Shown here piece by piece: positions 1 through 63,854 of a DNA stretch of 64,000 nt. The notes beneath the pieces were generated by a model that was not told the origin of the DNA, ran no database searches, and was given only the letters and a program-made list of their open reading frames with translations. The DNA lies in IMG/VR virus record IMGVR_UViG_3300028388_001808, positions 1-64,000 of that record; one strand, written 5' to 3'. The stretch comes from a virus. The translations under genes and the position numbers were made by a program. Position 1 is the first letter of the stretch, and every line of letters begins with the position of its first letter.

Positions 1-3000
1 CCTCTGCGAATCCATCTGATCGTACGCAGCTTTATCGAAAGTCTTACCGTCTATCACCTTAGCCAGATACTCAATTTCTCTTGAGAAGGATTTACGATCC
101 TTCAAAAACAGTTGGCGATACGTTTCATTCTCGCTATTAGCCAACTTGTTACCAGGGGCAATAAGAGAAGCTAGTCGCTTACCTACGTTAGTGAAAGTGT
201 TCGAAACAGCATGATTAAAGTCTTCAGGAGTCAGTAATTCTCTGCTTGCAGCATCGACAACTTTGCTGGAGAAGTCAAATCCGTAAGAATCTGTTTTTGC
301 GAATAATGCAGGATCACCTATTACCGTCATGAAACTGTTCGCATTGGCAATCATATTACCCAATACAAAATCAGTGGCTATCATAAAAGCCAGATTATCT
401 GCTGGCTGTTGGCCAAATCTTGACATGTAGGAACTATCGAAGTAAGGCAGTGTCGTATTACCGTCTTTATCCGGTACTAGCACACCAAGACTTTTCCATT
501 TCTTGACTTTGTTCTCTGCCTTTTCAGTAATCACCTTACCCAAAGTCTCGATAATAGCCTCTTCGAGATTAGGGTACTGCTGAAGTATTGCCTCTGTATT
601 CAAGCCTTCCTTTGCAGCATTTTCAAGGAACGTAAGGATGTTTATCTTGTTTCCGTCAGCATCGAAAGGAATCTTCAGTGCGTTCAAAATGGGAAAGAAA
701 TTGAACATTCTAGCACCAAGATCATATCCTTTGATATCAGTACTGCCCACCTCTCTAAAGAAGTGTACTATCCTTTTCAATTCCGGTAGAACTGACTGGT
801 CGAATAGGTACTGTACCAAATCAGGAGATATAATGGGTGAACCATCTTCAGCCGACAGGAAATCAGAAGAGTCTACCTTCCTGACGAGTGTTCTGGTTAC
901 AAGCATACTACCTTTATCAGACATTGTAGGCAGGAAGAAACCAGCTACCCGGTAAGTCTTTCCTTTATAGATCACATCCTTACCTTGTTTAGTGTCTTGA
1001 TGAAATCCAAGTTTCACCATTTCGTGATCGGCATCAGGGAGACTATCTATCTCAGCATTACGATAGTTACGCTTACCATGTTCCTTTAGTGCGTTTATAT
1101 CCAGATGAGCTAATGCAAAGACATCCCTCATAATTTCACTTATGGGGACACCTTCAAATTCCTCATCACTGGAAAGCATTCTAAGCCATTCTGAATTAGA
1201 GGAGAATGGAGTATTCAGAAGCTGTTGCAGTACATTACCCCTGCCAGTTACTAAATCAGTTACCCGGTCAGTAGCGTACTTACTTTGCGTGTAAGGGTAG
1301 ATTGTCTTATCACCCGTACGCACTGAATTAGGCATTAGTCTGTTTGTGTAGACTGCTTCCAGTCTTGCCAGAGACATTATAAGGCTCTGATCCAAAGGAT
1401 TATCCTGCGTTACATTGTAATCCTTATCAGACGAAATTACTTTTTGCAAGTAGTGTGCTAATGCCGCAAGTACATTATTCGTATTTTCAGCAGGTGTTAT
1501 TCTTGTAGTGAGTCCTACTGTTCTACCTCTATGTTTAAACTCTCCATTTATCAGACCGTTTATAGCTCTCGGAGAAAGATTGATGTTAAAAAAGGATAGA
1601 AACTCATAAATCTCAGGAGCTTGTGGACCTCTTCTATCGAACTTCTCAAGAACATAAAGCTCACGATCTCCTATCGCTGAACGATATATAGCATACTGTT
1701 CACCGTTTAGTACAAGTCCTGCATTCTTATTTTCTTGTAGTTTCTTGTTAAGAGCCGCTAAAGAAGATGCAGGTAGGTCACTTGGAGATACATAAATAAT
1801 GTTATTCCCTACCTCATTCTGTTCAGAGATGACCCTATAAAACTGCTTACTAAATGCAGTAGACAGGTTCTTTGGTACTTTCAACCCAAAAGTCATAGAC
1901 TCAAACACAGCTAATGCTGCTTTAGCCTGATCTTTATCTATAAGATATTCACCATTCTGATCAGTGTATACCAGATCGGAGAGTATGAAATCATTTACCC
2001 AGGTATTGTAGATCAGACGTTCCGTAGCACTTGCGTTCGAATCATAGACACGCAACACCATACCTTTTTTGGTACGGGAGTACATGACGAATTTCATGTC
2101 CATTGCATGTTTCGCCATTGTTACCACGAACTCATTTTTTATCTGCTGGTCTACTGCTTCTGATTTAAGTCTGGTAGCCAGTGACTTCAGCCAGGGAATT
2201 GCTTTACTTTGCTCCTCCAAAATGCCAATCATTGCATCCAGACTGACAGGGGAATTAGACTTGGCGATTACAGCAGATACCGTATTGTACGCCACGTCAA
2301 AAGGAACATAGACAGGTAGGCCGAGAAAACCTTTTATAGGTTCTCCATATTCATTCAAAGCTCTGACACCTGAAAGAAATCTTCTGAATCTGGAAGTGAT
2401 TGTAGCCTTCTGATCCATTTCAAGAGACGACTTGGAGTAGCTTCGTTCGTTGATCTGTTCCTCTTCGCTAAAATCTTCTGTGTTCTCTTCGCTATCTTCC
2501 AGAGGCTGCTCCTCTTGTATGTTTTGAATTTCTCCTACTTCTCCTTCTTCTGCTTTACGCAGCATGTTATCTCTACCAAGTACGTACTCTTCTATCGAAC
2601 CTTCTTCTTTATTGTACTTGAGTTTTACGCCCATGTGCTTACCAAGCATGTCTATCGCACTAGCAATAAGTTTTGCTTTGTTCTCAGGTGAGGACACAGT
2701 TTCCAGAGATTCGATAATAGGTAGTAGTCTGGAGACTACTTTTTGATAACTAGTATCCCCGGCATCCAATTTCTTTCTTGCCAGATTGTATTGAATCCTT
2801 GCACTATCCAATCTGTTCAGGATAGCAGATTCAAAGGTTTTGTTGATCTCTTTGAGTATCAGATCAAACGGCACAACTCCTACACGCGCTCCCCATTTTT
2901 CTCCCCTGTCAGTGCTTCTTGCGGACTGAATGGCTTCAGACATTACATTGAAAAGATAAGCAGTGATGTGAGCTTGTTGTGTATTTGTAAGCTTACCTAC

Positions 3001-6000
3001 TCTACTTTCTGCAAGTCTTTGTCGGATAGCATCTTCTTCCTCTTCAGACATTTCTCTGGAAAATAGCATATCGTCTCCTGCATCTTCCATGTCTTCGTAT
3101 CCATACTCATTATCAAGTTCATTCAAGATATCTTCTGCACTTTTTTCTTCTTCTGGTGTCTCTGTAGCGGCTTCTTCTTCAGTGGTTGTTCCTACTTCAG
3201 GAGCTACCTCTGTTACAGGTGCAGTAGTTTCTTCAGAATCTTCTTCCTGGATTATACCAACTTCAGGAGTACCGATACGTACTACAGGCTGTATGTACGT
3301 AACATACTTAGTACCTTCTGATGTCGGTACAGAGAAAGAAGGAATGTTGGTGAGTGTGCGAGATTTTACATGATCGACATAGTTCTGATCAGCAGTTATT
3401 GTGCCGTCTTCTTTTATGATAGGCACTACAGGATTTGTAGTAGCATGAGACAGTTGATAGTTGTAGCTTTTTTCTAGTAGAGACTGTGCTAGAAACTGAA
3501 GATTCGATCTCAAGTTTTGGATGTCTTCTTCAGTAGCGTTCTGCATAGCATTTGGGTGGATATGATAGAAGTCTTTTCCATCCGGAGTAAGTCTGTTCAC
3601 CTGTCCAAATACAACAGAACCGTGTTGAACACCTATAAAAGACATAGATGCAGGAATTACACTTGATCTTCCTGAAGTATCTTCTATGTGCGTACCGTGC
3701 TGCTCTGCTTGTGCTAATGCAGATACAAAGACTTGTCTGTAATCACCACCTCTCGCAATACCTTTTTGCGTATTTACGAATAGCGAAATATACTTTTCAA
3801 TACCTTCAGCAGAAGAAATATCTATTCTGGTAGCGTTTTGTATATCCTGAATTATTCTCGCATTCTCATCCGTACCTGGCATAATGTACGCTTCTACAGC
3901 TTTTGCTATAGATAGAGCAGCTTCCTCACTGACTTTACCATACTTCACAGGAAGCATGATATATTTAGGTTCTCCTTCATTTGCAGGTATAGGACGTAAT
4001 TCGAACATCTTACCTACACTGTCCGAAGCAATCGAATCGACATACTCCTTACCGCCAAGTACACTGTCAGTGGGAATAACTGAAGTGGAAGTCTCAGCCA
4101 ATTCTCCCTGAGCAGAAATTGCCACAACTTTAGTGTTCGGATCAGGATTTGCTACATTCAGCGGAACTGCTTTAGTCAGTCTACCGGATTTACCAATAGA
4201 GGTCTTTTCTATTGTAGTCTGCAATCCTTCTTCTTGCGCAAGGATTGCAGCTCTTGCATTCAGCAAGGACTCTCTTTGCTTACTTATTGTTTCATGTTGT
4301 GACTCTGCTATGTTGTGCGTATCTACCCAATTTACTTCATGTAAGTAACCATAGACCACACCTGTATCAGCATCTACAATTTCTATTGGTACTCTTGCTA
4401 CATACTCATAAGTACCGGGTTGCAGGTTTAATTCTTTGAACGGTACTTTCTCAATAGTATCTGCTTGATGATCTACTGTTACAGGTATCTCAGAAGGATC
4501 AGCTACTTTTCTGAGTATTACATTTTTCTTCCAACCCACAGGGTTTAGAAGAAATTGCAATGCACCAGGGTTATTCCTGTTTACTTCTATTGGATTTCCT
4601 TCATTCTGTATAGTCTGTCTTTCTACTTCCTGTATGTTTTCAGATTCGATAACAATCTTATCGTATTCGGCAGAAAGGTAAGCTACTTTGTTAAATGCTA
4701 TTTCTATAGCATCATTAACTATTCTGATGTTACCGTCTTCGTCATACTCAAGAACCTGATCAAGAGTAACTATTTTCTTCTCTTCCTTCTCTTCGTCTTC
4801 AGTAGTTTCCTTAATCTCTTCATAGGTAGGAGGAAGAGCTTGAGAGTTTATAGTATTTATAATCTCTTCAAGTCGAGACAAACTTTCTGTAGACTCAGGA
4901 GAACGATGTTTGTAAAGCAACGCCAGCGTTATAGCATAACGCTGAAAAGGTTGCATACCTACGCTATCAATAAACGATCTGGCAACCTCCTCAAATGTCG
5001 GTTCTCTTCCTATCCTGTTTGCTACAGCGTCAATAGCCTTGGAAAAAAACGTAAGGTTTTGGGTAGTGAAGTCTGTACTGACAGGGGCAAATAGATCATC
5101 GTTGTTAACGATGACCACATCACTCTGCTGGTTCATGGAATCCATGAAATTGCCCCATGCCTCAGCTTCTTCAGAAGAGGCGTTATCCAGATTTTCCTGT
5201 TCGCTTGAAACAGCTTCGCTTTGTGATGCTATAGGGTCTTCCGTAGAATCCATCTGAGCGGCTACCGTAGCTTCATATTCCTGACGTAGTTGTTCTTCGC
5301 TTACTTCAGATTCTGTAGGTGTGGCAGGTTCTGCTGGTGGGGCAGCAGGTGCTTCAGCTGTAGGAGTAGGAGCCGGAGTAGGAACAGGTGTTTCCGTTTC
5401 TTCTCTTTTTTGCTGTTCTTGCTGTTCTTTTCTGGCTACGTTACGTTTTGTGAGCTTCCTCATTTTATCGCGCAGCGTGTCAATCAGAGTAGCCTTTGTT
5501 TTCTTGATAGCTTCTTTCCTAGCGTTCTCTGTAGTGTCTACGATACTATCAATTACACTCTTGTCAAGAATACCATCATACTTAGCTTTAAGTTTTGCAA
5601 CCTTGTTAGCATAAACAGAATCGTCTCTTTCTGTACGCAGCTTGTCAAGACTGGTATACAAGTCCATCTGCTTACCTAAAGTCTCCTGAACTTCAGAAGA
5701 AGTAAGAGAGTGGTATTCTTTAGTATTCGCGTTAATGACATCCTGTAAAACTGCCTTTTGTTGCTGTAGAGCCATTAGTTGCGCTACTTCAGGAATAGCA
5801 GATGCTTTGTTTATAAACTCATCATAAGCTTTAGCTTCTGGAGTACCTTCTGCATATCCAGAATCTCCTACCAGATTATCAAGATGGTAGCGAAGACTAA
5901 CGTCTTCAGAAAGTTTGGTTGAGAGCGTACCAGCTTGTTCAGCTTCATTGATAGCAGTCCTTGCTTCGTCGATAAGTTCGTTCTGTGCCGTATTGATTTT

Positions 6001-7593: not shown

Positions 7594-9823
7594 CTTCAGT
7601 GTTTGTAAAGTTGTACTCAGTTTCCCCTTCCGAATAGGATTGTAAGAGAGGCGGTGCTACATTATTAGCTGATTGTTGCAGACGTTGCTGGTTAGCTATT
7701 TTGTATATTTCCACTGCCAGTGCTTCCTGGTCTTTAGCCTTTAATTGCTCTGAATTCCCATCAGGGTCAGTAAGTGTGGCAGTGATCGTATTCGTTACAG
7801 GATGTCTTTTCATGCTTATCGTAACCTCGCCTAGCTGCATCACAGCTTCTTCGGAATGTGCAATACCTGAAAGATGAAGAGGTTCCATGTAATTAGCGTA
7901 CGCAGCCATCTTTACACCGTCCTGCCATTCAGCAGAACCGTACTCATAAGACTGCCACATTTTTTCTCCAAGATCATTCAGTAGCTGCGTCTCATTTCCT
8001 ATATCGGTAATTGCTGTAACCTTCTCTCTACCTAATACTTTACCGTCTTCGTCAAAGATGCTAAGCAAGAATACAGGCTTCCCTTCAAAATACTCAAGAC
8101 CTGGGCTACTTATATCTTTAGACGGATCACGAGTAGCGTATTTGTCATCATTTAGGATACCTCCTTTACCATTAACTCCGATGAGAGGTTTACCCTGCAC
8201 CGTCTTATAATCAGCGTAGATGTTTGAAAGTTGTTTCGTCAGCGTAGATTCGTAAGCACCTACAGTTGACTTGTAAGGTCCAGAATCAAATCCAGTAAAG
8301 TATGGAGCAGTTCCGGTAAGATGTACAATCTCTTCAGACTTACCAAACCTATTTACTGCTTTCTTATACTTTCCGTTGTACTTGTCAATAATACCATAGT
8401 GGTTTGACATGTTAGCAGTGTCATCATTTGTGATGCCCATTTTATCTAGCTGACGCATCAACCAATTATTCTTATTCTTTTCTTTAGCTGGATTCAACCC
8501 TTCTCTTACAAGCTTCTTAAAGTCTTCCATTCCTATCGGATCAAGACCATACTCGTATGCGTCTTTTTGATAGTCTGCGTACATTCTTCCCCAGCTAAAA
8601 TTAGCAGCGGGGCTATCGGCCATTTGTTTATCAAAAGCAGTTATGATGCTTTCATAGTTCTCGATATCCGATTCAAGACTTGAGATTCTTGCGTTTACGT
8701 CTTTGTACTCAGCAGTACCTGGTTCAAGTTGACTTAATTGCTGTTTAGCTACATCCAAAGCAGACCTGCTATCGTAGAGATTCTTGGAGGTTTCTTTGTA
8801 CGTAGGGAAGGCGTCAACTTGTTCACCTGCTGTGAACTTGCCGTAAATACCGGGAGACTTCTGATTCCAGTTTTTGTATTTCTTTTTGTAAGCCAGATTA
8901 GTAGCAGCTATAGCATCGTAGTCTCTGGATTTCATACTAGACGTTACCTTGAATTCCGATTTTGTCCTTGCGGCAGATGCGCCAAATACAATACTACCAA
9001 TTTGAGTATTCAGATTAGGTATTCTGTTACCTTCCTCATCTTCAATCCATACCTGATACTCATCAACAGGTTCAGTACCAGTAGCTTGCGCTACTGCATT
9101 CGACCACTGTTGCGCAGACATAAACACATCGCCAGGAATTTGAGACATGATCATATTTGTAATGTCTTCAAACTCCCTTCCTGTAACCTTACCAGATTGC
9201 CAAGCAGATTCCCATCTGCTAAGGTCTTGTCTTGTAAGACCGTAGACTTCAAGATCAGTATCTTTTATGTTATCTACTATCTGGTTGACCATGTTCGTGA
9301 TTTCCTTAGCGTCCACATGCTTTACCATGTTTGCTCCGGATATTTGACCATAAGTGCCTGTCGAAGGATTATAATTAAGAGGATCGACTTTTATGTTCGA
9401 TACGGCGTAGTTTGCAAGTATAGGATTATCCTTGTAGGTTTCCTTATACTGTTTAACCATTTCATCATACACCCCTTTACGCTTAAACATAGCAGACGCC
9501 TCTCCAGTCAACCAGTCTCTTTGTATCGTTCTACCTAGATTTGTTACTTTAGGCATGTACTTTCTGTACTGTAATGGGTCTTGTTGTATGCCTGAAGTAA
9601 TCTCATCTATCTCTGACTGGTATTTTCTTAACTTCTCCTGAAAAGCGGGCTGGTCTTCTTGTATTACTTCACCTTGAAGATACTCACTAAGAGTATAAGC
9701 ACCAGCCTCAGTAGCTGCTATCTTTTGATCCAGAGACTCGATTACCCCAAGTAATTGCTCTTGAGGTACTTTATAAGTAAAGTCCAGGTACTGACCTGGA
9801 CTTGTTCTATAATTTCGTGCCAT
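7586..9823 (-). CDS. Virion cargo / ejection protein (745 aa)
   Basis: Long helical/coiled-coil ORF between the first cargo gene and the giant gene; crAss-like synteny. Confidence 0.6.
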   Translation of the reverse strand: MARNYRTSPGQYLDFTYKVPQEQLLGVIESLDQKIAATEAGAYTLSEYLQGEVIQEDQPAFQEKLRKYQSEIDEITSGIQQDPLQYRKYMPKVTNLGRTIQRDWLTGEASAMFKRKGVYDEMVKQYKETYKDNPILANYAVSNIKVDPLNYNPSTGTYGQISGANMVKHVDAKEITNMVNQIVDNIKDTDLEVYGLTRQDLSRWESAWQSGKVTGREFEDITNMIMSQIPGDVFMSAQQWSNAVAQATGTEPVDEYQVWIEDEEGNRIPNLNTQIGSIVFGASAARTKSEFKVTSSMKSRDYDAIAATNLAYKKKYKNWNQKSPGIYGKFTAGEQVDAFPTYKETSKNLYDSRSALDVAKQQLSQLEPGTAEYKDVNARISSLESDIENYESIITAFDKQMADSPAANFSWGRMYADYQKDAYEYGLDPIGMEDFKKLVREGLNPAKEKNKNNWLMRQLDKMGITNDDTANMSNHYGIIDKYNGKYKKAVNRFGKSEEIVHLTGTAPYFTGFDSGPYKSTVGAYESTLTKQLSNIYADYKTVQGKPLIGVNGKGGILNDDKYATRDPSKDISSPGLEYFEGKPVFLLSIFDEDGKVLGREKVTAITDIGNETQLLNDLGEKMWQSYEYGSAEWQDGVKMAAYANYMEPLHLSGIAHSEEAVMQLGEVTISMKRHPVTNTITATLTDPDGNSEQLKAKDQEALAVEIYKIANQQRLQQSANNVAPPLLQSYSEGETEYNFTNTEDE

Positions 9824-12273
9824 TATTCTTCTTTGATGTTTGTGTTATAGAGTTCGTAACCTCCTGTTTTCTTTCTTCGGATACCTATACCATACGTAGA
9901 CAGTTCAGGCAGAAGAGAAAGGAAGTCTTCATTCAGTTGCTGAGTATTCAGATCAGCAGCAGTCTTCTGTACGCCAGTACCTAGATTAACCAGATCAGCA
10001 TTGAGTTGCGTGTAGAAGTTATCACGATCCTGCTGATTAGCAGTGAAGGCTCTTTCCCTTCCAGCTCTTCTCTGCGCATCTACTTGCAGTTCAGTACCTG
10101 CCAGTCCTCTTAACTGTTCAGCCATCACTTGCGCGAACTGAGAACCAATCTGACCAGCTTGAGTACCTTCCTGTGCAGCAATACCCATGTAATTGGACAT
10201 TTGCTGTCCAACTCCACGAAGATTGTTTGCCGCCTGTCTGCGAAGACGATTTGCTATTCTGGTGTTTCCTCTCTTCGCTTCTTCTTCAGCCTGCTTCAAA
10301 GCCTGCAAACTCTTTTCGTAAGTAGCCAATGCGTCAGAACCAAAACCTTCCATAAAATTCGGAGTAGGTTCATCGCCAAGACGATTACCTAAAGTCATAG
10401 CCATAGGTCCGACTGCACTGATTGCAGTACCTGCGAATCCAATATCGTCCGGGTTTACAGTCATGCCCTCATTCACATCACCTACAGCTTCTTCAGGAGT
10501 GATTCCAGAAGGCTCAGGAACCAAGTTTTTCATGAAGTCTTCACCTACTACCGGAATAGAAGGAATCTGGTCAGAGAGACCAGCTATGTCTTCAGGAGGC
10601 AGAATTTCCATCCCGGAAGAGGTAGCGATTTGTGGTTGCTTTATAGTGTACGGACCTGTACCTGTTTCAGAGTTGACTAAAGGCATTTGAGGTATCGTAG
10701 CAGGTATACCAGAAGGACCGTAGTCATAGATGTCTTCTTGTGGCATTATTGGAGTACGCGGATCAAATCCACTAGGATTGTCGCGCATCTGACGAAACAT
10801 ACGCAAACGTTCTTCATAGTCTACAGGATTCGTAGGATCGCCACCATTTGCAATACCACCTGTTTGCATTTTCTTTATTCCTCCACACTTGTAGATTTCC
10901 TCCATCACTTCGTTCTCAGTTATACCTCCTTGTGCGTATCTGCGAAGTGCCGTACGAACAGGTTTCAACTGTTTGTTTCTGTAAGATGTTTCAGGAGTCT
11001 CAAGTATTTCCATGTATGGAGCGTAGTTCTTTCCCTTGCCGCTTACATTCGGATAGATGTTCTTCCCTTCTTTCCAGAAGTTATGTTCGATCACATCATC
11101 CATATTATATCCAGTTTCCAGAGCAGCTTGCGCACATACAGCACCAGTTCTATCATATCCGTGCTTGCACATCACGATAGCATTACCTTGCTTTACCGCA
11201 TCTACGGCTTTTCTGAAATTCGCTTTCTCTCCTTTTCCGGACAGATTACCAATAGGAAGATACTTCACTTTAAAACCAAGGTTCTCCAATTGCTTTTTGG
11301 AAACTCCTTCGTTTTGTCCTCTAAGCAATACAATTGTATTGACTTCCGGATGATCCGATCTGAATTGCGTAAGTTGGTCAGGACTTACGTCTCCGCTTCT
11401 GTAAGAACCTGCCACAGTAGGCCGGATTAACTTTGTTTGATTTCCTTTCGTGATCCCTTTAGCCGGAGAAAGGCTAGGTCTACTGACAGGGGAAAAAGAA
11501 GGGGATTTAGCAGGTTTATTGCGTTTAGCTGTAACGGTAGCTTCAGGAAGATTACCACCAGAGTAAGTAGGCTCTGTTTGTTTTCCTGGTATTCTTAGTT
11601 TGGTCCCTACCTGCAAACTTCTAGGATCGCTAATATTATTTGCCTTTGCGATCTCTTCCCAAGAGACGCCTTGTGCTTTACCTATACCCCAAAGCGTGTC
11701 TCCCTTTTTAACCTCTACGATTCCACCATCAGCAAACTTCTGAGTCATTGCATCTGTGGCTCGCATAGCCTCCATAACTGCCACATCGTGCATATCTTCC
11801 ATAGCAGTAGTCACACCTGCTCTTTCAAGTGTGTTTCTTGCTATTCTGTCAGTAGGAGTAGCGACGAACTTTTTGGTGACGTTATTCAGATAGTTCTCTC
11901 TTCTCTTTTTTCTTTCAGCCATTGTTTTGCCGTCTGGTCCTTTTACCCGCTTAGAGTAAATCTTCGTACCGTCTTTCAAAGCAACATCAATTCCTCCGTT
12001 TTCGTGAGACGGTCCTTTAAATTCACCAACACCTCCTTGAGGCGTTTCAAACATTTCTTTTCCTTCCACCTCAACCATTCCTCCTGTGGCATAAGGATTC
12101 TGCTGAAGATGATACGGAGTGACATCTGTTTTAAGCGTCTCGATCATATCAGCTACGGCAGTAGTAGCCATTGATACCAAAGTACCTACACCGTAGTCTG
12201 TAACTGGTGCAGTACCTGATGCAGCAGCTTCACCACCACTTAGATATTTTTCAAGTCTTTTCTTTTTCATCAC
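9823..12273 (-). CDS. Cargo protein 1-like with inserted LysM and Cys-dependent (PTP/DSP) phosphatase domains
   Basis: N-terminal VEVEGKE...GPSHENGG motif and repeated (Y/F)xxGG motifs; LysM (VKKGDTLWGIGKAQGVSWEEIAKANNISDPRSLQVGTKLRIP); phosphatase YRSG ... CKHGYDRTG (CX5R). Confidence 0.7.
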   Translation of the reverse strand: MMKKKRLEKYLSGGEAAASGTAPVTDYGVGTLVSMATTAVADMIETLKTDVTPYHLQQNPYATGGMVEVEGKEMFETPQGGVGEFKGPSHENGGIDVALKDGTKIYSKRVKGPDGKTMAERKKRRENYLNNVTKKFVATPTDRIARNTLERAGVTTAMEDMHDVAVMEAMRATDAMTQKFADGGIVEVKKGDTLWGIGKAQGVSWEEIAKANNISDPRSLQVGTKLRIPGKQTEPTYSGGNLPEATVTAKRNKPAKSPSFSPVSRPSLSPAKGITKGNQTKLIRPTVAGSYRSGDVSPDQLTQFRSDHPEVNTIVLLRGQNEGVSKKQLENLGFKVKYLPIGNLSGKGEKANFRKAVDAVKQGNAIVMCKHGYDRTGAVCAQAALETGYNMDDVIEHNFWKEGKNIYPNVSGKGKNYAPYMEILETPETSYRNKQLKPVRTALRRYAQGGITENEVMEEIYKCGGIKKMQTGGIANGGDPTNPVDYEERLRMFRQMRDNPSGFDPRTPIMPQEDIYDYGPSGIPATIPQMPLVNSETGTGPYTIKQPQIATSSGMEILPPEDIAGLSDQIPSIPVVGEDFMKNLVPEPSGITPEEAVGDVNEGMTVNPDDIGFAGTAISAVGPMAMTLGNRLGDEPTPNFMEGFGSDALATYEKSLQALKQAEEEAKRGNTRIANRLRRQAANNLRGVGQQMSNYMGIAAQEGTQAGQIGSQFAQVMAEQLRGLAGTELQVDAQRRAGRERAFTANQQDRDNFYTQLNADLVNLGTGVQKTAADLNTQQLNEDFLSLLPELSTYGIGIRRKKTGGYELYNTNIKEE

Positions 12274-15200
12274 TCCGATTTTATTTTGTCTACTTTAACA
12301 AAGTTAGTTAAAAGTTGAACATTGTTCAAGTTTAAAATGAATCTGATTGACAGATACTTATCTCTGAAGTTCTCAAGCTGTGACCAGTCTTTAGAGAAAT
12401 CTACAGCATCTGCATTAGGTTCTTTGTAGGGTACGATAGCACCAGTAGCTACTGGTACATCTGTATCTGTTACGTAATCGTAAAGTTCTGGTATATGCCA
12501 GGTTCTTTCTCTTTTGTCTATTTTTATGATGCCGTACTCGTCTTTTGCATAATCCGACACATAATCAAAATCAACTGACAGTGGTCGTAAAGACTGAAGG
12601 CCGGTAGATTGTCTATTTGTATAGCCCCACAATTGGTCAAATGTAATAAATCGCTGCTCCACACTATCCTTTATTGCTTCTGTATGCAGCTCAATGTACT
12701 GAAATTTAACCGTCTCGTCTACCCTATCTACTACTTCAAGTACGTGCGGATAGTTATTTCCATAGTATGAATTGAAGAGTTCTTTATTATTGTGTATCCA
12801 AACAGAGTCACCATTTGATGTGAAGAACGTGCGTTTGTTGTAGAACGCATAATTCGGTAAATAGCTGTGAAAGCTTATCCACTTATCTGAAAGCATATCA
12901 TAGCTTATAGTCCAGCTATAGTTGTCGAAATATCTCCTGTCATTGACATCCACGTACTCTAATGTGCTTCCAGTATTTAAAAACCAGTATCCGGTCTGTT
13001 CGTTATAAACCAAAAAACTTCTACTAGATAGTTTCTTTGGAGTGAAATCTTTCTTAGTGATAATCAACCTGTCTTCCTCAGCGTCGTAGTAAGTAATGTA
13101 GCCTACACCATGCGGGTGTGCAGGATTAGGTGTTTGAGTAGACTGTAGTCTTAAATTGTCTCTAAAAAAATCGTCAAGTCCATTTAACGATATAGCTTTC
13201 AGTTTGTCGCTCAGGACGTAAACTACTCCGTCTCTGCTATCCAGTATAACAGTTCCATAAGGAGTGCTTATCGTACTAGTACTATCCACACATCCCACAG
13301 CACCAAGTTCACTGTCTACCACTTCTCTTGGAGGAATAGCAAGAAAATCTCCAGTACCGATATACGTAACAAGATCACTGTTTATACGCTCTTGTAGATT
13401 TTGAGGTACGTAGAAGAGCATGTCTGTAGTAGTGACGTAAACTTTTTCTCCTTTTCGTATGATATTTGTTATTTCTCCGTAACGTCCAGGAAAATCTTGT
13501 ACATCATTTGCCAGAAAGATTTTCAGTGCGTCTGCTTGTTGTTCATTGAGGGATGTCTGTGACCAAGTTATTCGATTAGGAAACTCTTCCAGACATTCCG
13601 TGCAGTAGTCAAAAGCAACTGGCAGGGAGAAAAAAGACTTCTGTCGATTGTATCTCGAATAGTCCTTGTTGTAAAGATAAATCTCAGGACACAATACAGG
13701 CTTTACTTGGAATTCTTTTTCTTCTGTATTATAGTAGGTCGTCTTATCTTTTATAAAGTTGAAGACGTCTCCAGTCTGATAATAAGTACCACACTCTTGA
13801 TTTGACGCATAACGCAACGCCACATTGATTTCAGATTCAACCCACAGATTTCTAAACTCTTCTGTAAAGAGGATAACCTTTTTATCCAGAGAATCAAGAA
13901 AACCAAACTGATCCTGTACAGCACCATCAAGGTCTTGATCAGAAAGGCATTCTTCGTAGATACCATCTTTGATAAGTTTGGTGTGTATAGATACTGCACT
14001 TGCTGTAATACCTACATAAGCCGCTGCTGTGGCAGTCAAGGCTACTGCAATTGCTACACCCGCTGCCGGAGCAGCTACACCTAGTGTGACCGCTGTAATG
14101 ACCAAAGCTCCTACTATGGCAGCTATTCCAGCTACATTAGCCCAGGAACTTTCTTGGATGTCTCTTATCTTGGTATCCATCAAACGGAACTCTGAGATAA
14201 AGGCATCACCACCGAATATCAGGTTAGATGACTGGTTATCCAACATGCCAGCGTGTATCTTGTAATACTTCAGATTGAACAGATTGCTATAGACGTCTTT
14301 GTACGTCTTTATAGAAGTATAAGCATGTTGAGGTAGAAGTTCGTATGTGTGATAGGCGTTTATGTTATTTGTCATAGACATATTCGCCAACTCTACACCT
14401 TCTACTGTATCTTTAGAGACTGCACCAAGTTTGATGTTTCCACGTACCGCATAGTTTAACTGATCCTGTTGAACAGCTACGCTGGTACATCTGATTTCTC
14501 TATATCCGAAATAAATATCATCCTGGCTAGCTCCGGTAAGTTCTTTTATGTCCGTAGCTGAGTTGGTCGTTTGTATTCGCATGTCTCCTTCCACTTTCAA
14601 GTATCCGGAGAGCATTTCGTTCTGATAAAGGAATCTTGGTGTAGCGATAAATTGAAATGGATTATCGTTTGGTATTTCTCTCATGTAAGAGAAGGCTACC
14701 AAATCGCTACATCCTTCGTACCTAAAAGATACGCCTTTGTCCAATACTGTTTTATTTTCTTCTGTCCTTTCAGCAGTTACAATATAATGACCAACTATTC
14801 TGGGATCAGGATACGCGATATTATGGAAGCGCACACCAATAAGACGAATTACATCATCGTCATAATCATATTGTTTTTGCAGTCTTCTATCCGGCATACG
14901 GTGATGCCTTATTTTTTTCCCTGTCAGTTCATTCCCGCATACATCGACTCCCCAGATACTATTTCCATTGCAATCACGTATATCAGGATAAGTGCTGTTT
15001 TCCAATTCGTGATACCCCATTACACCAGTAGTAGGTGTTATCCTGTTTGCTGTATTATAGACTTGCCATCTTTTTAAATCTCCTGCTGTGTAATCATCAG
15101 GATCATTTACGACATGGCGTAAGTCTTCACTCCATTCGTTTATAGGTGAAGTGTCCCACTGTGTTGGAATAGATGGACCTGGAATAAATCCATTACCTCC

Positions 15201-16415: not shown

Positions 16416-17373
16416 GGTAATAACCTCTTAAAGAATTAAATCTGTTCGGATCGTTGTACGTACGCACTTCTGTCTGCGCTAGCTTGCCAAAAAATCCGTA
16501 GTATCGATGCTGTCTTGGTAGAAACTGTTGTTTGATGTCCATGAGGTTCTGGTTCTCGTCAACTCCACTAGGCATCATAGTAACGGCAGCAGCTTGTCCG
16601 CAATACCACTGCCAGTCCTGTTCAGATTTTTGAAGCTGAGATACAGAACCCTCCCTGCTGGAATAAAATCGCTGTGACATTTTTCGGAAAATCGCATAAG
16701 CTTGCATAGCAGCTTCGTATGACTCGTGATCTGGTATCATTGGATAACCTTCGTCGTCAGTAGGTTGTCGTCTGTAAGCCATTGCTATCTGACCAGACTC
16801 AAACGAAAATCTGAGTATTCCAGCACTGGGTACTATAGAATATTCATATTCGCAACTATTCTGATAGGGTTTTTCTTCTACGTCGTTACAAACTAAGCTA
16901 CCAAAAAACGAATTTTCTGTTAACCTGACAGGTACATAAGATTGAGTGTACGCGTTACTGTTCATCCAAGCTTCGTATTCGTATTTCAGATCAAAATAAG
17001 GACGATAGTATGCAAGTTCTACCCCTGTTATAGGTTTACCATAGCAGTCTATCGGCACAGGGTACTTCTCCTCTTCCGCCTCTTCTACTACTACAGTACC
17101 TGGTAGAGTGCCTGTATTCACAGTGTCCTCTTCTGTATACTGCATATTTCTGGCAATCTGAATGATCTGATGAATACCGCAGGGAAGGCCACATTGATGG
17201 TTTTTCACTTCGATAAAAGCTACAGCTTCTTCGTAAAGACCTATAGCTCCTATAAGACCTAACGCCTCACCTACCCATTCTATGATGTCGTTATCAGACC
17301 ACTCAAGATCAGGATAGTTTCTGTTAAGCTTGGCTATGATCTTTTTTGCACTGGAGTATCTTAGATGTCTCAT
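16405..17373 (-). CDS. Tail ring / tail tubular protein
   Basis: IIEWVGEAL, DDEGYPMIPD and WQWYCGQA motifs; directly upstream of muzzle. Confidence 0.75.
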   Translation of the reverse strand: MRHLRYSSAKKIIAKLNRNYPDLEWSDNDIIEWVGEALGLIGAIGLYEEAVAFIEVKNHQCGLPCGIHQIIQIARNMQYTEEDTVNTGTLPGTVVVEEAEEEKYPVPIDCYGKPITGVELAYYRPYFDLKYEYEAWMNSNAYTQSYVPVRLTENSFFGSLVCNDVEEKPYQNSCEYEYSIVPSAGILRFSFESGQIAMAYRRQPTDDEGYPMIPDHESYEAAMQAYAIFRKMSQRFYSSREGSVSQLQKSEQDWQWYCGQAAAVTMMPSGVDENQNLMDIKQQFLPRQHRYYGFFGKLAQTEVRTYNDPNRFNSLRGYYHVS

Positions 17374-17828
17374 CTGCTGACATAAAATTTTTGACCTTTT
17401 TTAATCATTTGAGCGAGTCCTCTTTTGAACGTTCTGACAGGTACAAGTCTGTAGATTTTACGGAATCTGTACTTAGACTGATTGTTCGAGAACACTATCC
17501 TGTAAACCACACCATCACTATGATCGTTTGTCTGGTATATCTTTTCTCCTCTTTCTGCGCATTCCGGACAGTTTTCCCACAGTGCGTAAGTCTCTTCCCA
17601 ATCTATAGGTATGTTATATCTACCATTTTCAAATTTACGCACTTTGTACTTTCTGCCTTTTATGTAAACAGACCCAAGACTACTCGGTAAGAGTACCTCA
17701 TGGCCAGCATATACATACTCTATGAAAGCGTCTACAAAGTACTTTATTATCTTCTTATAGGTCTGTTTACTCAACTTACCTTTGTAAGTTTCTTTGTAAG
17801 CTGTATCCATGTTCACCATATAACTCAT
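17370..17828 (-). CDS. IHF/HU-like protein of the crAss tail module
   Basis: Basic 152 aa; LPSSLGSVYI, IDWEET and R-x-F-K-R-x-LA motifs; between ring genes as in crAss-like phages. Confidence 0.6.
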   Translation of the reverse strand: MSYMVNMDTAYKETYKGKLSKQTYKKIIKYFVDAFIEYVYAGHEVLLPSSLGSVYIKGRKYKVRKFENGRYNIPIDWEETYALWENCPECAERGEKIYQTNDHSDGVVYRIVFSNNQSKYRFRKIYRLVPVRTFKRGLAQMIKKGQKFYVSR

Positions 17829-19306: not shown

Positions 19307-20035
19307 TCAGTTCCAAGTTATTGTTACATCAACCTTACCTGCTGTAGATGCTAAAGAAGCTATTCTAAGCCAGAATGTTTTTACACCTGGACCTGCATTA
19401 GTCACTGCATAGTCAGGTATTGTCGTTATACCTGCTCCCGGAAATGGTGGGATTCCAATATCCAGAAGATTCAGAGAAACACAAGAACCGTCATAAAGAG
19501 CAAGATAAATATCCGTAGCTCCTTCTGGACCGTAGGCTCCGCCGAATACTGTAAACGTAGTATCCGCTGCGGAGACGCCCGCAGGAACATTAAACTTTAC
19601 CCAAATATCACCTGCAAAAGGACCAGCTCCCCATCCTCCTGGAATAGCCTCTCCGGAATCTGTAGCTACTCCAACACCCGGACATTCGCCTCCATTATTC
19701 TGCAAAAGCAACTCAGTCCTACTTCCACTGGCAGTGGGAAAAGAAGCGGCGATAGCACCAGAACAGTTATCGTTAGCTAGTGCAGCATAATTATTTAGGT
19801 TGATGCCTACCGACTTCGCATCAGTTTTTCCATTCAGCGTAGTAGTATAAGTGTATTCATAATAACCTTCGGCAAACCCTCCAAAATCTACATCATCGTT
19901 GTATGCGGCAGGAACAGCAGGATAAGGATTAGCTGTACCTGTATAGGTCCATACTCCACTTACATTTCCAAGTGGAGTAACTTCACCGTCAGCAGATGCT
20001 TCAGGACCAAGTAAATTAAATAGATTTAGTATCAT
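19307..20035 (-). CDS. Beta-rich virion-associated protein with a Bacteroidota secreted-protein-like domain
   Basis: NDNCSGAI ... DIWVKF ... LALYDGSC pattern; Gly/Ala/Thr-rich. Confidence 0.45.
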   Translation of the reverse strand: MILNLFNLLGPEASADGEVTPLGNVSGVWTYTGTANPYPAVPAAYNDDVDFGGFAEGYYEYTYTTTLNGKTDAKSVGINLNNYAALANDNCSGAIAASFPTASGSRTELLLQNNGGECPGVGVATDSGEAIPGGWGAGPFAGDIWVKFNVPAGVSAADTTFTVFGGAYGPEGATDIYLALYDGSCVSLNLLDIGIPPFPGAGITTIPDYAVTNAGPGVKTFWLRIASLASTAGKVDVTITWN

Positions 20036-42964: not shown

Positions 42965-43410
42965 AATATAGCTATATTAAAGATGAAAAATAAAGTAAGC
43001 CCTACTACAAAATACAATAAGCGCAGCCAGGGATTCTTATCCGGAAAGTTTGAAGAGTCTGCATGCGCATACCCAAAGAATCGATATGGTTTGCCTCTAG
43101 CATCCAATACAGGTTTCAGTTCTTTGTACCACTTAGTCAACCAGTAATGACCTTCAAAATAAAATCCAGTCTGTATGAAAGGCAACATCAGCCAGAGAAA
43201 TACAGTATTCAAAGCAATGCCCAGAAGATTCAGATGACTGACAGTGAGAAAAAGAACGACTATGCGCTGCAATAGCGCAAATAGATGAGGCACGTGTATG
43301 CTTTTCGAATTGAATCTGTATCGTATTGGAAGAAATCGATAAAGATAGCTATCGTAAAGACCTTCGATAGCAAGATAAGTAATCCATAGTAGTAGAGATA
43401 TATATATCAT
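42961..43410 (-). CDS. Multi-TM membrane protein (holin candidate)
   Basis: Three or four hydrophobic segments; near lysis genes. Confidence 0.5.
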   Translation of the reverse strand: MIYISLLLWITYLAIEGLYDSYLYRFLPIRYRFNSKSIHVPHLFALLQRIVVLFLTVSHLNLLGIALNTVFLWLMLPFIQTGFYFEGHYWLTKWYKELKPVLDARGKPYRFFGYAHADSSNFPDKNPWLRLLYFVVGLTLFFIFNIAIL

Positions 43411-46533: not shown

Positions 46534-46827
46534 AAAGACCCTTTTCCTCAGACAAGAAGATCTTTATGGCATGAACAAGATAGGCAAAATAAGTCGTTTT
46601 ATTCAGGCGTTCACAAAATGATAGAGTTCGCCCAGTTCGCCCAGTATTATATAATAGATATACAATACTAAGTTATTTATTATTAACTATATAATAATTA
46701 TATAGTATTATAAGGTTCCTCCCCACCCTCCCTCCACAATTTTTTCATTTTTTTTTGATAAAACCAACTTTTTTCACCTAAAAAAACTCATCCCACTCAT
46801 AACTAATTGACTGACAGGGGGAAAAAA

Positions 46828-47177: not shown

Positions 47178-47834
47178 TTAAGAATGACTAGATTTAATCT
47201 TATGCACGTACTCTCCTATAAAGTTCTCTTTCTTAGTAATAAAGCCAATAGTATCAAACGTAGTCAGCATCTTGCAAACTATCTGTTTTCCTGCGATCTT
47301 CACCAACTCTAAAGCCTTACCGTTCACAGATACAAAATCCCCACTCTGTGCATCAATACGCTCACTGAAGTTACGATCCAAGGTAAGTACAATAATAGAA
47401 AAAGGCGCATAAGTCGTACTATCTATAGAACAGTCAATGATTCTCAAAAGGACTGACTGGTTTGCACCTTTCGCCTCTATACCCATAAGATCACAAATAG
47501 TGTTAAAATCCGTCTTGTCCCAATCATAACTAACACCATTATAAGACAACGTATCATACCTTCCACCAGAGTCAAAATACTCTTTCAACCCACCTTTACC
47601 CGTCATAATCATTTTATCAGGAGTCTTTATTACAGCAGAGAAAAACTCCGATCTATCAACCCTGTCAGTCTTATGGACTACACTAATCGTCGTTTTGCCT
47701 TTAACTGAAGTGTTCTCTATTCTATCATAGAACACCTCTAAAAGATACCTTTCTACATCTTCAACTACGAGATTCTTGATCTCCAGGAATTTTTTCATCT
47801 TGTCCATGCTATACATTTTTAATAAGTCAACCAA
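47178..47834 (-). CDS. Hypothetical protein
   Basis: 218 aa ORF. Confidence 0.55.
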   Translation of the reverse strand: MVDLLKMYSMDKMKKFLEIKNLVVEDVERYLLEVFYDRIENTSVKGKTTISVVHKTDRVDRSEFFSAVIKTPDKMIMTGKGGLKEYFDSGGRYDTLSYNGVSYDWDKTDFNTICDLMGIEAKGANQSVLLRIIDCSIDSTTYAPFSIIVLTLDRNFSERIDAQSGDFVSVNGKALELVKIAGKQIVCKMLTTFDTIGFITKKENFIGEYVHKIKSSHS

Positions 47835-48118: not shown

Positions 48119-48426
48119 CTACAATTTAAGCCATTTTGTACATAAAGATACTGAACATTTTAAAGAAAACCCAGAAAAACTGACAGGGTAGAAAAATCCA
48201 GTACTCCAAAAATTTTTAGAGGTGGGGGTACTATACCCTAAAAATCAAAGGATTTAATACCCCCCCCCCTACAATACCTTACCTATTTCTGAAACCCGAA
48301 AAAAATTAGGGGGTAGGGGTGAAATGGTGAACCCCCTCTATTCTTTAGCCCCCACTAATGATTGCAGGGGATACCCCCCTGCATATTTCTAGGAAGGATT
48401 TCTATCACCTTGTAAATATATTTACT

Positions 48427-53679: not shown

Positions 53680-54251
53680 AGAAAAGAGAAGACATAGACT
53701 ACGAAATGCTAGACAAGCGTCATAGCTACAGCAAACCCACTTGTGGGGTAGAAGAACTGTTTGAAAAGTGGGACTTTTTGTGGTCCTCTTTCTTAAAAAG
53801 CTTCAACCCCTGTCAGTGGGAGAATGGAACCTGTGCGCTAATGAGAGACGACCAGTTCAAAGGTCATCCTTATTACAACAGCCCGTTTGCTTGCTGTAGC
53901 GGATGTAGTCACGCTTCGTCAGATGGATGCACTACGTCCAACCTGGAATGTAAATCCTGGCTATGCAGTAAGGCGAAAGCCAACCTGCAAGATCAGGGGA
54001 ACTATGATGCGTACGTTCTACTAGATCGTGCATATCATAGAGAGGTACTGCACAGAAAATTCTACATTAGCAAGGAGCAATACATAGAAGATGTGTACCT
54101 TGCGAAAAATAACGGTACTCAAGTCCAGAAGTTAGACTTTGGCTGGAGTAACAAAGAGGATATAAGAAAAAAACTGTCGCAGCATGGAGCAGGGATTATT
54201 TACAAAGAAAGATTTGGAGAAAGAATACCAGAAGTGGTGTTTAACATTTGA
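53676..54251 (+). CDS. Cys-rich metal-binding protein (paralog 1)
   Basis: FNPC..C..CCxxC..GC...CKxWLC. Confidence 0.55.
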   Translation: MKKREDIDYEMLDKRHSYSKPTCGVEELFEKWDFLWSSFLKSFNPCQWENGTCALMRDDQFKGHPYYNSPFACCSGCSHASSDGCTTSNLECKSWLCSKAKANLQDQGNYDAYVLLDRAYHREVLHRKFYISKEQYIEDVYLAKNNGTQVQKLDFGWSNKEDIRKKLSQHGAGIIYKERFGERIPEVVFNI

Positions 54252-56006: not shown

Positions 56007-56594
56007 GTGAAGAATGACACAATTTTACTTATCATTCTGTTCATCTTTTCACTACCGATAAAGGGTTTTTCACCCTGCCAGTCCAATTTGGGTTTGACTG
56101 ACAGGTTGGAAAAACAAGAGGTCTGTCAGCCTACTAGGCTGGACAGTCTTCTTCAATTGTCCCTTTATCTGCTGAAAGACATGGAAGGACTCCGATTGGA
56201 GTCGTATAAATGTCCCGGTGGGATGTGGACAATTGGCTATGGTCATACCAAAGAGGTCAAAAGAGGTATGATCATTACAGAAGAACAGGCTGACAGTCTG
56301 TTGCTTCAAGACCTCACAGAAGCTTTGAACCATGTTGATCGTTTGTCGAACAACTTGGAAGAAGGCGAGAGATACGCTTTAGCATTGTTTCTCTTCAATG
56401 TCGGACCGTACCGACTGAAGGGAACACGTACTCTGAGACATATTCAGGAAGGAAATGAACCTCCATTCCATCTTTGGGTACACGCTAAAGGAAAGAGGCT
56501 CAGAGGATTAACTGAAAGACGACAGATCGAAACTGAATTTTTCAGAAATTGGTCTGGACTATTTCAGAAAACCTTTGTACATTTGGATTCATAA
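56007..56594 (+). CDS. GH24 lysozyme with N-terminal hydrophobic signal/SAR segment
   Basis: EGLRLESYKCPGGMWTIGYGHT (E-x8-C-x5-T triad), FNVG and GLTERRQIE. Confidence 0.85.
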   Translation: MKNDTILLIILFIFSLPIKGFSPCQSNLGLTDRLEKQEVCQPTRLDSLLQLSLYLLKDMEGLRLESYKCPGGMWTIGYGHTKEVKRGMIITEEQADSLLLQDLTEALNHVDRLSNNLEEGERYALALFLFNVGPYRLKGTRTLRHIQEGNEPPFHLWVHAKGKRLRGLTERRQIETEFFRNWSGLFQKTFVHLDS

Positions 56595-58273: not shown

Positions 58274-58290
58274 AAACTTCTATCATAACC

Positions 58291-58426: not shown

Positions 58427-58437
58427 GTTTAACCGCT

Positions 58438-58511: not shown

Positions 58512-58541
58512 CTACGAGGAGCAGCATCTCAAATCACAATT

Positions 58542-58764: not shown

Positions 58765-58796
58765 CAATTACTGTAATTACAAATAAATCTAAGCAA

Positions 58797-59018: not shown

Positions 59019-59027
59019 GTTATAATT

Positions 59028-59108: not shown

Positions 59109-59142
59109 TACAATATCTTTCAACTTAAAAACAACAGACACC

Positions 59143-61643: not shown

Positions 61644-61960
61644 AGAGGAAAGCAAGAAAAGAACACATCTGCGACACCTGCGGAGAAGTCATACAAAAAG
61701 GAGAAGTGTACGAATATGACGAGCTTAGAGTACCTAGACTTGACGAACAAGACGTTCAGGTAGGAATAGAATACTTTAAGTTTAAGACATGTTGGCACTG
61801 CTTTGCTTTGTGTCACGAAAAACAAGAAGAGCATTACTTTGTAGATGAATACGTAACAGATGGCTTCGTATCCGGAAATAGAGTAATGTCACCTACAGGA
61901 AGGCAATATTGCGTAAAATGCGGAATGTATAAGGAGGATTATGATAATATTCATCACTAA
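61640..61960 (+). CDS. Zn-finger protein
   Basis: RKARKEHICDTCGEVIQKGEVY...CWHC...CVKCG. Confidence 0.65.
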   Translation: MKRKARKEHICDTCGEVIQKGEVYEYDELRVPRLDEQDVQVGIEYFKFKTCWHCFALCHEKQEEHYFVDEYVTDGFVSGNRVMSPTGRQYCVKCGMYKEDYDNIHH

Positions 61961-63854
61961 ACAACTCGGAATTTGGGATTCTAGCGAAATTCCAACAGTG
62001 AACTCTATAGAACCACTGTTACAGTTCATGAGAACTGAACAGGTCTATGGAGTGGATACAGAGACTACCGGAGCTTGGAATATGAGGAATGACCTTACTT
62101 CTCTTCAGATTATGAGGAATGACCTCATTTCTCTTCAGGTAGGGAATGAGGAAGTACAGTATGTCGTAGATTGGCAGTCTATGTCTACGGCAGAACGTAT
62201 GGAAATACTGAATGAAATGGCTAAACCAAGAGCCACGAAGGTACTACAGAATGCGAAGTTTGATCTGAAATTCTTTATGCAGTATGGCGTGTATCTCCTG
62301 AACATCTACGATGTGATGGTAGCAGAGTGCTTGATCTATGCAGGAAGAAAACAGGAGAAGGGATTCTTCGCACTGGATGCGATTGCAGCACGCTACTCGG
62401 ATATGCGGCTTGACAAGTCAGTGCGTGGGAAGATTCACATTGAAGGGCTAACTGGCAGGGTAATAAGATATGGTGCGGCTGACGTAGAATGCCTTATCCC
62501 AATAATGCGGGGAACGCATCTGAAGCTTCAAAGCCTCCACATGGCGAAAGAGGACCATCAAGACCCTCATACGGTACTGGGAATCGAAAATCGTTCTTGT
62601 CTGGCCTTTGCAATGATGGAATTCAACGGGTTAAAACTCGATCTGGTCAAATGGGAACAGATCAAGGAAGAATTGAAGGAATCTATCATACGTATAGAAA
62701 AAGAACTGGACAAAATCGTAGTCGAGTCAGACCTATTTACAGGAATGGGAATGCGTCAACTTGATCTTTTCTCGGACACAGTAGAGACGAGAATAAACTG
62801 GGGTAGCTGGCAACAGAAATTACCACTGTTGAAACAGATTAACCCAGAGATACAAGATACCTCAGAACGATCTCTGTCAGTTCATAAGAACGAGCATCCA
62901 ATCATTCCAAAGTTGATAGAGTATGCAAAAACTACAAAGCTGTACAACGGATTCGCTAAGACAATGCCAAAGATGATAAATCCTGTAACGAATAGGATAC
63001 ATACATCCTTTTGGCAGAACCAAAGTACAGGACGTGTCTCTACAGATAGTCCTAATTTGCAGAACATCCCAGCAAGAAGTGAAATGGGAGGTAGAATGAG
63101 AGAATGTTTCATTCACGAAGAAGGTTGGAAGATAGTAGGCGGAGATTACAGTGGTTGCGAATTACGGGTAATGGCTGAATTCAGTCAAGACCCTCTATGG
63201 TTGAAAGTCTTCAATGAAGACGGAGACTTACACAGCGAGTTGTGTGCAAAGACATTCAACATACCAATAAGCGACGTTAAAACAATGTCTCCTTATGGTG
63301 TGAAATACAGAGACGTACAAAAGACCATAAACTTCGGTCTCGCGTACGGAATGTCAGAATATAAACTGGCAGACACGTTACAAATCAGCATAGAAGAGGC
63401 AAGAACTATCATTAACCAGTTCTTTGCCGTAGTGCCTACACTGAAAGCTTTCCTAAACAAGCTTGGAAGGTTTGCAGTAAGAAAAGGCTTCTCAAGGACT
63501 CCTCCACCATACGGTAGGATTCGCTGGTTTGATAAGTACAAAGGTAGCCCCAAACAGAGGGGTGAGGTGGAAAGGGAAGGTAAGAATCATCCTATCCAGG
63601 GAGCAAACGCAGATATGGTTAAACTCGCACTAGCCAACTGCTACGAATACATTGTAAATCACGGTCTTACAGATCATGTAAAGTTAATGCACACTATACA
63701 TGACGAGATACAGACTGAGGCAAGGGAAGACATTGCAGAGATATGGGCTGTAGAACTACAGAACATAATGGTGGAAGCCGCCTCTGTTATTATCAAATCA
63801 ATTCCTATGGTTGTCGATGTGAAAATCGGAGACAACTGGGGAGAAACCAAATAA
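61941..63854 (+). CDS. polA: Family A DNA polymerase with 3'-5' exonuclease domain
   Basis: ExoI DTETTG, ExoII NAKFD, ExoIII YGAAD; motif A DYSGCELR, motif B KTINFGLAYG, motif C IHDEI. Confidence 0.95.
   Translation: MIIFITKQLGIWDSSEIPTVNSIEPLLQFMRTEQVYGVDTETTGAWNMRNDLTSLQIMRNDLISLQVGNEEVQYVVDWQSMSTAERMEILNEMAKPRATKVLQNAKFDLKFFMQYGVYLLNIYDVMVAECLIYAGRKQEKGFFALDAIAARYSDMRLDKSVRGKIHIEGLTGRVIRYGAADVECLIPIMRGTHLKLQSLHMAKEDHQDPHTVLGIENRSCLAFAMMEFNGLKLDLVKWEQIKEELKESIIRIEKELDKIVVESDLFTGMGMRQLDLFSDTVETRINWGSWQQKLPLLKQINPEIQDTSERSLSVHKNEHPIIPKLIEYAKTTKLYNGFAKTMPKMINPVTNRIHTSFWQNQSTGRVSTDSPNLQNIPARSEMGGRMRECFIHEEGWKIVGGDYSGCELRVMAEFSQDPLWLKVFNEDGDLHSELCAKTFNIPISDVKTMSPYGVKYRDVQKTINFGLAYGMSEYKLADTLQISIEEARTIINQFFAVVPTLKAFLNKLGRFAVRKGFSRTPPPYGRIRWFDKYKGSPKQRGEVEREGKNHPIQGANADMVKLALANCYEYIVNHGLTDHVKLMHTIHDEIQTEAREDIAEIWAVELQNIMVEAASVIIKSIPMVVDVKIGDNWGETK
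62081..62140 (+). repeat. 30-bp in-frame tandem duplication in the polymerase exonuclease domain
   Basis: TATGAGGAATGACCTTACTTCTCTTCAGAT / TATGAGGAATGACCTCATTTCTCTTCAGGT. Confidence 0.9.

Follow-up and report, generated by a model that had tools for sequence, protein, structure and literature searches.

Results

A dispersed ten-base word in a crAss-like phage genome

The ten-base word ACTGRCAGGG is scattered over both strands of IMG/VR virus record IMGVR_UViG_3300028388_001808, of which we analyzed positions 1 to 64,000 (the whole stretch of 64 kb, hereafter the window) together with the remainder of the record. We found 17 exact copies in the window and 25 in the whole genome, 15 on the plus and 10 on the minus strand. 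A preliminary description, made from the letters of the window, had claimed 17 copies, and every coordinate and strand that it gave proved exact. The record measures 93,733 bp, of which 99 bp are repeated at its two ends, so that it represents a circular assembly of 93,634 bp.

A Pfam and PHROG census placed the genome among the crAss-like phages, as it encodes a Crassvirus major capsid protein, tail ring proteins 1 and 2, portal, and TerL; its replication genes comprise a family A DNA polymerase, a DnaB-like helicase, a Toprim primase, UDG, Sak4, and an ExoVIII-like nuclease. Among cultured phages, the nearest relatives belong to the FpV4 group of Flavobacterium psychrophilum phages, which have the same gene order and a major capsid protein 58% identical, the gut crAss-like phages being far more remote (31%). 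The sole closer relative is a Logan contig of 94,463 bp encoding P0002 (TerL, 65% identity), and a single-protein TerL search of IMG/VR returned no match. Five relatives, FpV4, G001, G005, G009, and G010, were compared gene by gene, with the P0002-encoding contig left out of the comparison; they are referred to below as the five relatives.

One gene spans the ends of the record and houses five exact copies and two variants of the word:

Window 1-7593, continuing at genome 93634-85535, minus strand: open reading frame (ORF) of a giant virion protein, 5,230 aa, with the two end ORFs joined after collapsing the 99-bp overlap

The exact copies of the word in the window are the following:

1239..1248, minus strand: exact copy ACTGGCAGGG, sense in the giant virion protein gene, phase 0
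2242..2251, plus strand: exact copy ACTGACAGGG, antisense in the giant gene
2904..2913, minus strand: exact copy with A-tract, sense in the giant gene
5077..5086, plus strand: exact copy, antisense in the giant gene
11482..11491, plus strand: exact copy with the consensus tail GAAAAA, antisense in gene 9823-12273
13618..13627, plus strand: exact copy with A-tract, antisense in gene 12270-16415
14919..14928, minus strand: exact copy with A7 tract, sense in gene 12270-16415
23369..23378, plus strand: exact copy, antisense in gene 23141-23953
30165..30174, minus strand: exact copy, sense in gene 29009-30379, with the opposite-strand variant 30252 at 87 bp
31669..31678, plus strand: exact copy with A-tract, antisense in gene 31519-32031
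37117..37126, plus strand: exact copy, antisense in gene 36895-38040, where the local peptide is unlike that of every orthologue
46810..46819, plus strand: exact copy with A6 tract, intergenic
47660..47669, minus strand: exact copy, sense in gene 47178-47834
48179..48188, plus strand: exact copy with A-tract, intergenic, where the minus-strand and plus-strand gene blocks diverge
53808..53817, minus strand: exact copy, antisense in gene 53676-54251
56073..56082, minus strand: exact copy, antisense in the endolysin gene 56007-56594, 24 bp from variant 56097 and back to back with it
62451..62460, plus strand: exact copy, sense in the family A DNA polymerase gene 61941-63854

Variants of the word lie at the following positions of the window:

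4062..4071, minus strand: variant ACTGACAGTG
7712..7721, minus strand: variant ACTGGCAGTG with an A-rich tail
12574..12583, plus strand: variant ACTGACAGTG
16607..16616, minus strand: variant ACTGGCAGTG, in codons for DWQW
19727..19736, plus strand: variant ACTGGCAGTG with tail GGAAAAGAA
22218..22227, plus strand: variant ACTGGCAGGA with an A-rich tail
30252..30261, plus strand: variant ACTGACAGTG
43237..43246, plus strand: variant ACTGACAGTG with tail AGAAAAAG
56097..56106, plus strand: variant ACTGACAGGT with tail TGGAAAAA

The near-matches that the preliminary description had pointed out at 19727, 22218, 43237, and 56097 are true one-mismatch variants and carry the same tail. The pair at 56073-56106 forms a short inverted repeat inside the endolysin gene.

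The word is selected at the DNA level

The number of copies far exceeds that expected from the composition of the sequence. Dinucleotide shuffles gave on average 0.29 copies and at most 2, none of 100 reaching the observed 17, and the two 10-mers covered by ACTGRCAGGG are the most over-represented words of the genome (order-3 Markov P value about 1e-21 each). When synonymous codons were shuffled within genes, 3.45 ± 1.0 copies (maximum 7) were obtained against the 25 observed, a figure that counts the two intergenic copies left unshuffled; the 8-mer ACTGRCAG occurs 47 times, compared with 11.6 ± 3.1 in the same null. The enrichment thus persists under models aware of codons and of Markov composition.

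Copies are found in every one of the six frames and in either orientation to the genes, and the 2 intergenic cases among the 25 (46810 and 48179) are in line with the 8% noncoding fraction. By synonymous choice, the encoded proteins would permit the word at 68 places, and it is realized at 23 of them. Together with the excess over the codon shuffle, the six-frame use and the 23 realized places rule out a peptide or codon origin, as had been argued for peptide motifs in the preliminary description from the copies' spread over gene orientations and intergenic DNA. In orthologue alignments, the copies fall on protein positions that vary. At the variant site 16607, the phage encodes DWQW; four of the five orthologues read DWHW there, and with the change from His to Gln the codon CAG completes the word. 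Taken together, these observations indicate selection or drive acting at the level of DNA and strong enough to alter proteins.

The placement of the copies also bears on a role in transcription. A promoter, terminator, or pause signal for the host or virion RNA polymerase could be seen in the copy at 48179, which lies in a divergent intergenic region and points to the plus-strand genes, and the virion RNA polymerase of phi14:2 is known to work on single-stranded templates, its early promoters being undefined (10.1101/2020.03.07.982082). The copies nevertheless follow the coding sequence rather than its borders: 23 of the 25 are intragenic, equal to the 92% coding fraction, and the 32 intragenic sites of the set ACTGRCAGKG divide into 17 sense and 15 antisense. 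The sites show neither a hairpin nor excess folding energy, and the word is unlike the sigma-70-like middle promoters of crAss-like phages; such middle promoters were described in phi14:2, where the early promoters share no common motif (10.1101/2020.03.07.982082). We consider a transcription signal very improbable.

Anatomy of the signal

The full signal is longer than the word first noticed. It consists of ACTGRCAG, then G or T followed by G, and finally an A-rich run free of C, and extends over about 17 nt from its start. Approximately 41 sites match it, the set being defined as ACTGRCAG followed by G or T and then by any base except C. While ACTGRCAG is near-invariant, the two positions after it read GG in 25 copies, TG in 9, and GA or GT in 6. 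C is absent at +10 and from +12 to +15, and two C are seen at +16; the A-tract that had been reported to follow many copies is real, with 72 to 76% A at +13 to +15. The information content reaches background at about +17. One-mismatch variants number 23 against 8.8 expected, their mismatches being concentrated at the last two G's, and the tail rarely occurs without the ACTGRCAG prefix (12 of 14 cases have it). On the other side, no conserved sequence was found upstream of the copies, although the base before ACT is A or T in 17 of 25. Nor did we observe hairpins or unusual folding at the sites: the mean folding energy of −13.2, compared with −11.4 ± 4.7 in random windows, is at background level and rules out a hairpin or another structured element.

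A core as sharp as this would suit the recognition site of an enzyme, and the phage has many lineage-specific genes without assigned function from which such an enzyme could come. However, we see little likelihood that the word serves as a target for sequence-specific DNA modification or has arisen from biased repair or a gene-conversion drive: the Pfam and PHROG census contains no methyltransferase, transglycosylase, or reverse-transcriptase domain, modification targets are normally not enriched, and a pure drive does not predict the spacing of same-strand copies that we describe next.

Copies on the same strand keep apart

In the exact set, every one of the eight closest neighbor pairs combines a plus-strand and a minus-strand copy, and copies on one strand come no closer together than 1,369 bp (P value = 0.007, label permutation); the summed per-strand coefficient of variation of the spacing differs from that of random positions with a P value of 0.003. 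The pattern holds in the 41-site set, where each of the 11 closest pairs again joins the two strands and sites on one strand approach each other to no less than 1,044 bp (P value = 0.0004, label permutation). Pairs on opposite strands come as near as 24, 87, and 214 bp. Spacing between same-strand copies without spacing between opposite-strand copies speaks for a process in which a single strand is read. We saw no replichore-type switch of orientation, as the orientation of the sites does not partition around the circle, and the alternation of strands along the genome is not significant. The word is a real, strongly selected DNA signal read by strand, and its sites are not positioned as those of a promoter or terminator would be.

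Strand-defined words that are dispersed and intragenic are documented in phages for one class only, the sites of single-strand nicks made by a phage nickase, as in T5, tf/Rembedalsseter, and phiKMV. Rembedalsseter has 13 WACTRTGAC sites, each located at a nick, and 60 relatives are enriched for this word as well (PMC11780129), and the nick word of phage tf is TACT/RTGMC (PMC3517423). The words of tf/Rembedalsseter, the phiKMV-like phages, and T5 resemble the present one in being 9 to 10 bases long, dispersed, mostly intragenic, and many-fold enriched. The 5′ WACT plus purine recalls the aACTG of our word with its preference for A or T before ACT, and the observed spacing on the same strand would be consistent with nicking as well. 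The likeness in sequence spans only four to five bases, however, and the systems differ in other respects. Words of the tf/Rembedalsseter type lie on one strand, at mapped nicks, and are conserved in the family, and all known nick words are restricted to one strand; here the strands carry 15 and 10 copies, and the relatives examined lack the word (0 copies in 17 related records). Nicking of the opposite-strand pairs spaced by 24, 87, and 214 bp would put the DNA at risk of double-strand breaks, and the proteins scanned against Pfam and PHROG contain no HNH or nickase-like domain. On balance, we find it unlikely that the word marks sites of nicking.

Distribution of the word

The word is absent, with 0 copies, from FpV4 and from 17 related IMG/VR records whose TerL is about 50% identical. 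None of the five relatives has any word of comparable strength, the best P value being about 1e-8 against 1e-21 here. Searching the whole of IMG/VR for the consensus 16-mer, a screen estimated to catch about 60% of genomes like this phage, we found 14 other records with one 10-mer copy each, and a viral scan with a 14-base pattern gave chance single matches only, among the matches listed. The numbers in bacteria are similarly low: 401 Bacteroidota genomes contain no more than about 30 copies per genome, much like a reversed-word control, and 401 Flavobacteriales genomes contain at most 3 copies of the extended word each, compared with 15 in the 94-kb phage. With the word absent from the relatives and from the Bacteroidota genomes searched, it is specific to one phage lineage and, within the genomes covered, not a host word.

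These counts bear on the possibility that the phage copies a Chi-like, uptake-sequence-like, or translocase-guiding word of its host. The random-looking spread over both strands and the AT-rich flank recall the uptake sequences of Haemophilus, and the true host may lie outside the sampled genomes. Like our word, the uptake signal sequences (USS) of Haemophilus, the DNA uptake sequences (DUS) of Neisseria, and Chi are oriented and over-represented and occur in all frames and on both strands, in the case of USS with an AT-rich flank. They are, however, words of host genomes with about one copy per kilobase, whereas the word is not enriched in the about 800 Bacteroidota genomes searched, and the 14 IMG/VR records with the consensus 16-mer, having a single copy each, reveal no phage that shares it. 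Ten strictly conserved bases exceed any known Chi word or FtsK-orienting polar sequence, and to our knowledge no uptake drive is known in lytic-type phages. The suggestion of a host-type Chi, uptake, or nucleoid motif in the preliminary description was therefore not borne out by background-level counts in bacteria and the lack of a multicopy IMG/VR record, and we regard a host word as quite improbable.

Two other words help to put these observations into perspective. The heptamer AGGGTCA is enriched five to eight times in FpV4 and G001, but it is almost always antisense to genes and can be rejected as a DNA word of these phages: it is the antisense of Asp-Pro codons (GAC CCT) and reflects a coding effect. 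The crAss-like phage cr10_1 (NC_055875.1), on the other hand, has a word of its own, TTACT(TT/CA/CT)GGA, with about 38 copies on both strands and top 10-mers reaching P values of 1e-12 to 1e-14. It resembles the present phage in this respect and differs in the sequence of the word and in lacking the spacing rule. The present phage belongs to an environmental FpV4-like branch whose other members examined show no such word. We could not find a publication describing dispersed words of this kind in crAss-like phages, of which ACTGRCAGGG is a sharp example.

Candidate readers of the signal

Three genes are of particular relevance to the question of what reads the word:

61941..63854, plus strand: family A DNA polymerase, without homologue in the five relatives
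Genome 67898-68896: Toprim primase
17370..17828, minus strand: HU/IHF-like protein of the virion module, with a sub-threshold Pfam match (E = 0.045) and homologues in five of five relatives

The last of these and the protein encoded at 46056, which has weak winged-helix matches and homologues in four of five relatives, would be candidates if the word were a duplex binding site of an architectural or regulatory protein, with the A-tract acting as a bend. The combination of an asymmetric core and an adjoining A-tract recalls IHF-type sites, and three sites cluster at the divergent control region at 46.8-48.2 kb. The core, however, does not match the IHF consensus WATCAANNNNTTR. The 23 intragenic copies are unrelated to gene starts, and duplex binding predicts no repulsion limited to copies on the same strand. 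Both proteins are conserved in relatives that lack the word, which weakens them as readers; the DNA-level signal proposed in the preliminary description stands, and the assignment to helix-turn-helix (HTH) or IHF-like proteins does not fare as well. Duplex binding is, in our judgment, an unlikely explanation.

A different part of the genome distinguishes the phage from its relatives. The small genes adjoining the polymerase have no or weak homologues in the five relatives, the helicase (genome 64667-65848) is only 22 to 23% identical, and a polymerase of FpV4 type is present only in G001 and G005 among the relatives compared. The absence of the phage's own polymerase from all five and the restriction of the FpV4-type enzyme to two of them indicate that DNA polymerases have been swapped within the FpV4-like branch. 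As part of a lineage-specific replication cassette, the family A polymerase may be a partner of the signal. Given that the relatives lack the word and the cassette is divergent, the comparison yields a short list of candidate reader genes. The lineage-specific proteins showed no nuclease, methyltransferase, or DNA-binding domain in Pfam and PHROG scans, and for two of them the Protein Atlas gave no usable lead, a weak Prok-E2 hint being obtained for a protein of 404 aa.

A possible priming site

The strand-specific spacing and the restriction to one lineage lead us to favor, tentatively and with somewhat less than even confidence, the view that the phage's own DNA machinery uses the word as a strand-specific signal. 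The identity of the enzyme and its action at the sites we infer from the arrangement of the bases. Among the actions on a single strand, priming would give the best anatomical fit, with nicking as the second choice in the same class and another strand-specific loader as a further option, and a strong priming site is the likeliest, if still doubtful, mechanism.

On the template, that is, the complementary strand, a site reads as a T-run, N, CCC, TG, Y, and CAGT. The template-strand CTG is followed by CC, N, and the T-run, a pyrimidine run as long as a primer, and the composition signal stops 11 to 12 nt from the predicted start. DnaG of Escherichia coli initiates on a CTG in the template, and its primers are about 11 nt long. 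A DnaG-type primase recognizing the template 5′-CTG-3′ would start at the A of CAG, and the resulting primer would be purine rich, consisting of AGGG, a variable base, and an A-run; its length of about 11 to 12 nt would equal the span of the composition signal. ACTGR would then represent the 3′ flank of the template and could aid the choice of site by the primase, as in the T7 primase. If one priming site were needed every few kilobases on each strand, copies on the same strand would be expected to keep their distance, with no such constraint between opposite strands.

The comparison with T7 is instructive. The T7 primase has about 26 strong sites, formed by the pentanucleotide 5′-(G/T)2GTC-3′ and a 10-nt 3′ flank (PMC12839067). 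Like sites of the T7/DnaG type, the present word comes as a few dozen strand-specific sites in a phage genome, and as a priming site it would likewise combine a short start element with a site-selecting flank on the 3′ side of the template and a looser primer-coding stretch. The word is much longer and sharper than the T7 sites, with 8 to 10 invariant bases.

Several observations weigh against priming or, more broadly, against a signal of the replication machinery. CTG or CAG occurs by chance in many 10-mers, which leaves the anatomical fit with modest weight, and it could be a coincidence. A density of one site per 4 to 9 kb per strand is sparse for the initiation of Okazaki fragments, and simple bidirectional theta replication predicts a switch of orientation between the halves of the circle, whereas the sites show none. 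Template specificity of primases is usually conferred by a zinc-binding domain; we saw no canonical zinc-ribbon motif in the N-terminal part of the phage primase, in which it departs from the T7/DnaG systems. A further departure is that orthologous primases (28 to 36% identity) are present in FpV4, G001, G005, G009, and G010, all of which lack the word. Finally, we did not detect a same-strand spacing rule for the word of cr10_1.

A broader model can be outlined, though we think it rather unlikely. CrAss-like phages, the present environmental FpV4-like lineage among them, might use lineage-specific "super-sites" that fix, for each strand, where DNA synthesis starts or the strand is opened, and the present phage might have gained its sites recently along with a swapped cassette comprising the family A polymerase, the divergent helicase, and a small zinc-ribbon protein encoded at 61640-61960. 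With such a recent gain, the reader could be found by comparing gene content with that of the word-less relatives. CrAss-like phages are among the most abundant viruses known, and their replication and DNA handling are poorly known; a word that takes precedence over protein coding and is spaced strand by strand offers a concrete, testable step in their biology. The genome is useful in this respect as it provides about 40 defined sites while its closest available relatives have no such word.

Other features of the genome

The window also contains a set of tRNA genes:

58438-59109, plus strand: three tRNA genes, Met-CAT, Arg-TCT, and Leu-TAG

The 11 kb from 48100 to 59400 of the window contain few ORFs longer than 120 aa in the standard code, and these lack homologues in the five relatives; the region may house small early genes and RNA genes. 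Outside the phage, we observed a crAss-like TerL homologue (41% identity) within a 1.6-Mb bacterial contig of the isolate assembly of Zeaxanthinibacter sp. PT1, which could represent an integrated or a co-assembled crAss-like element.

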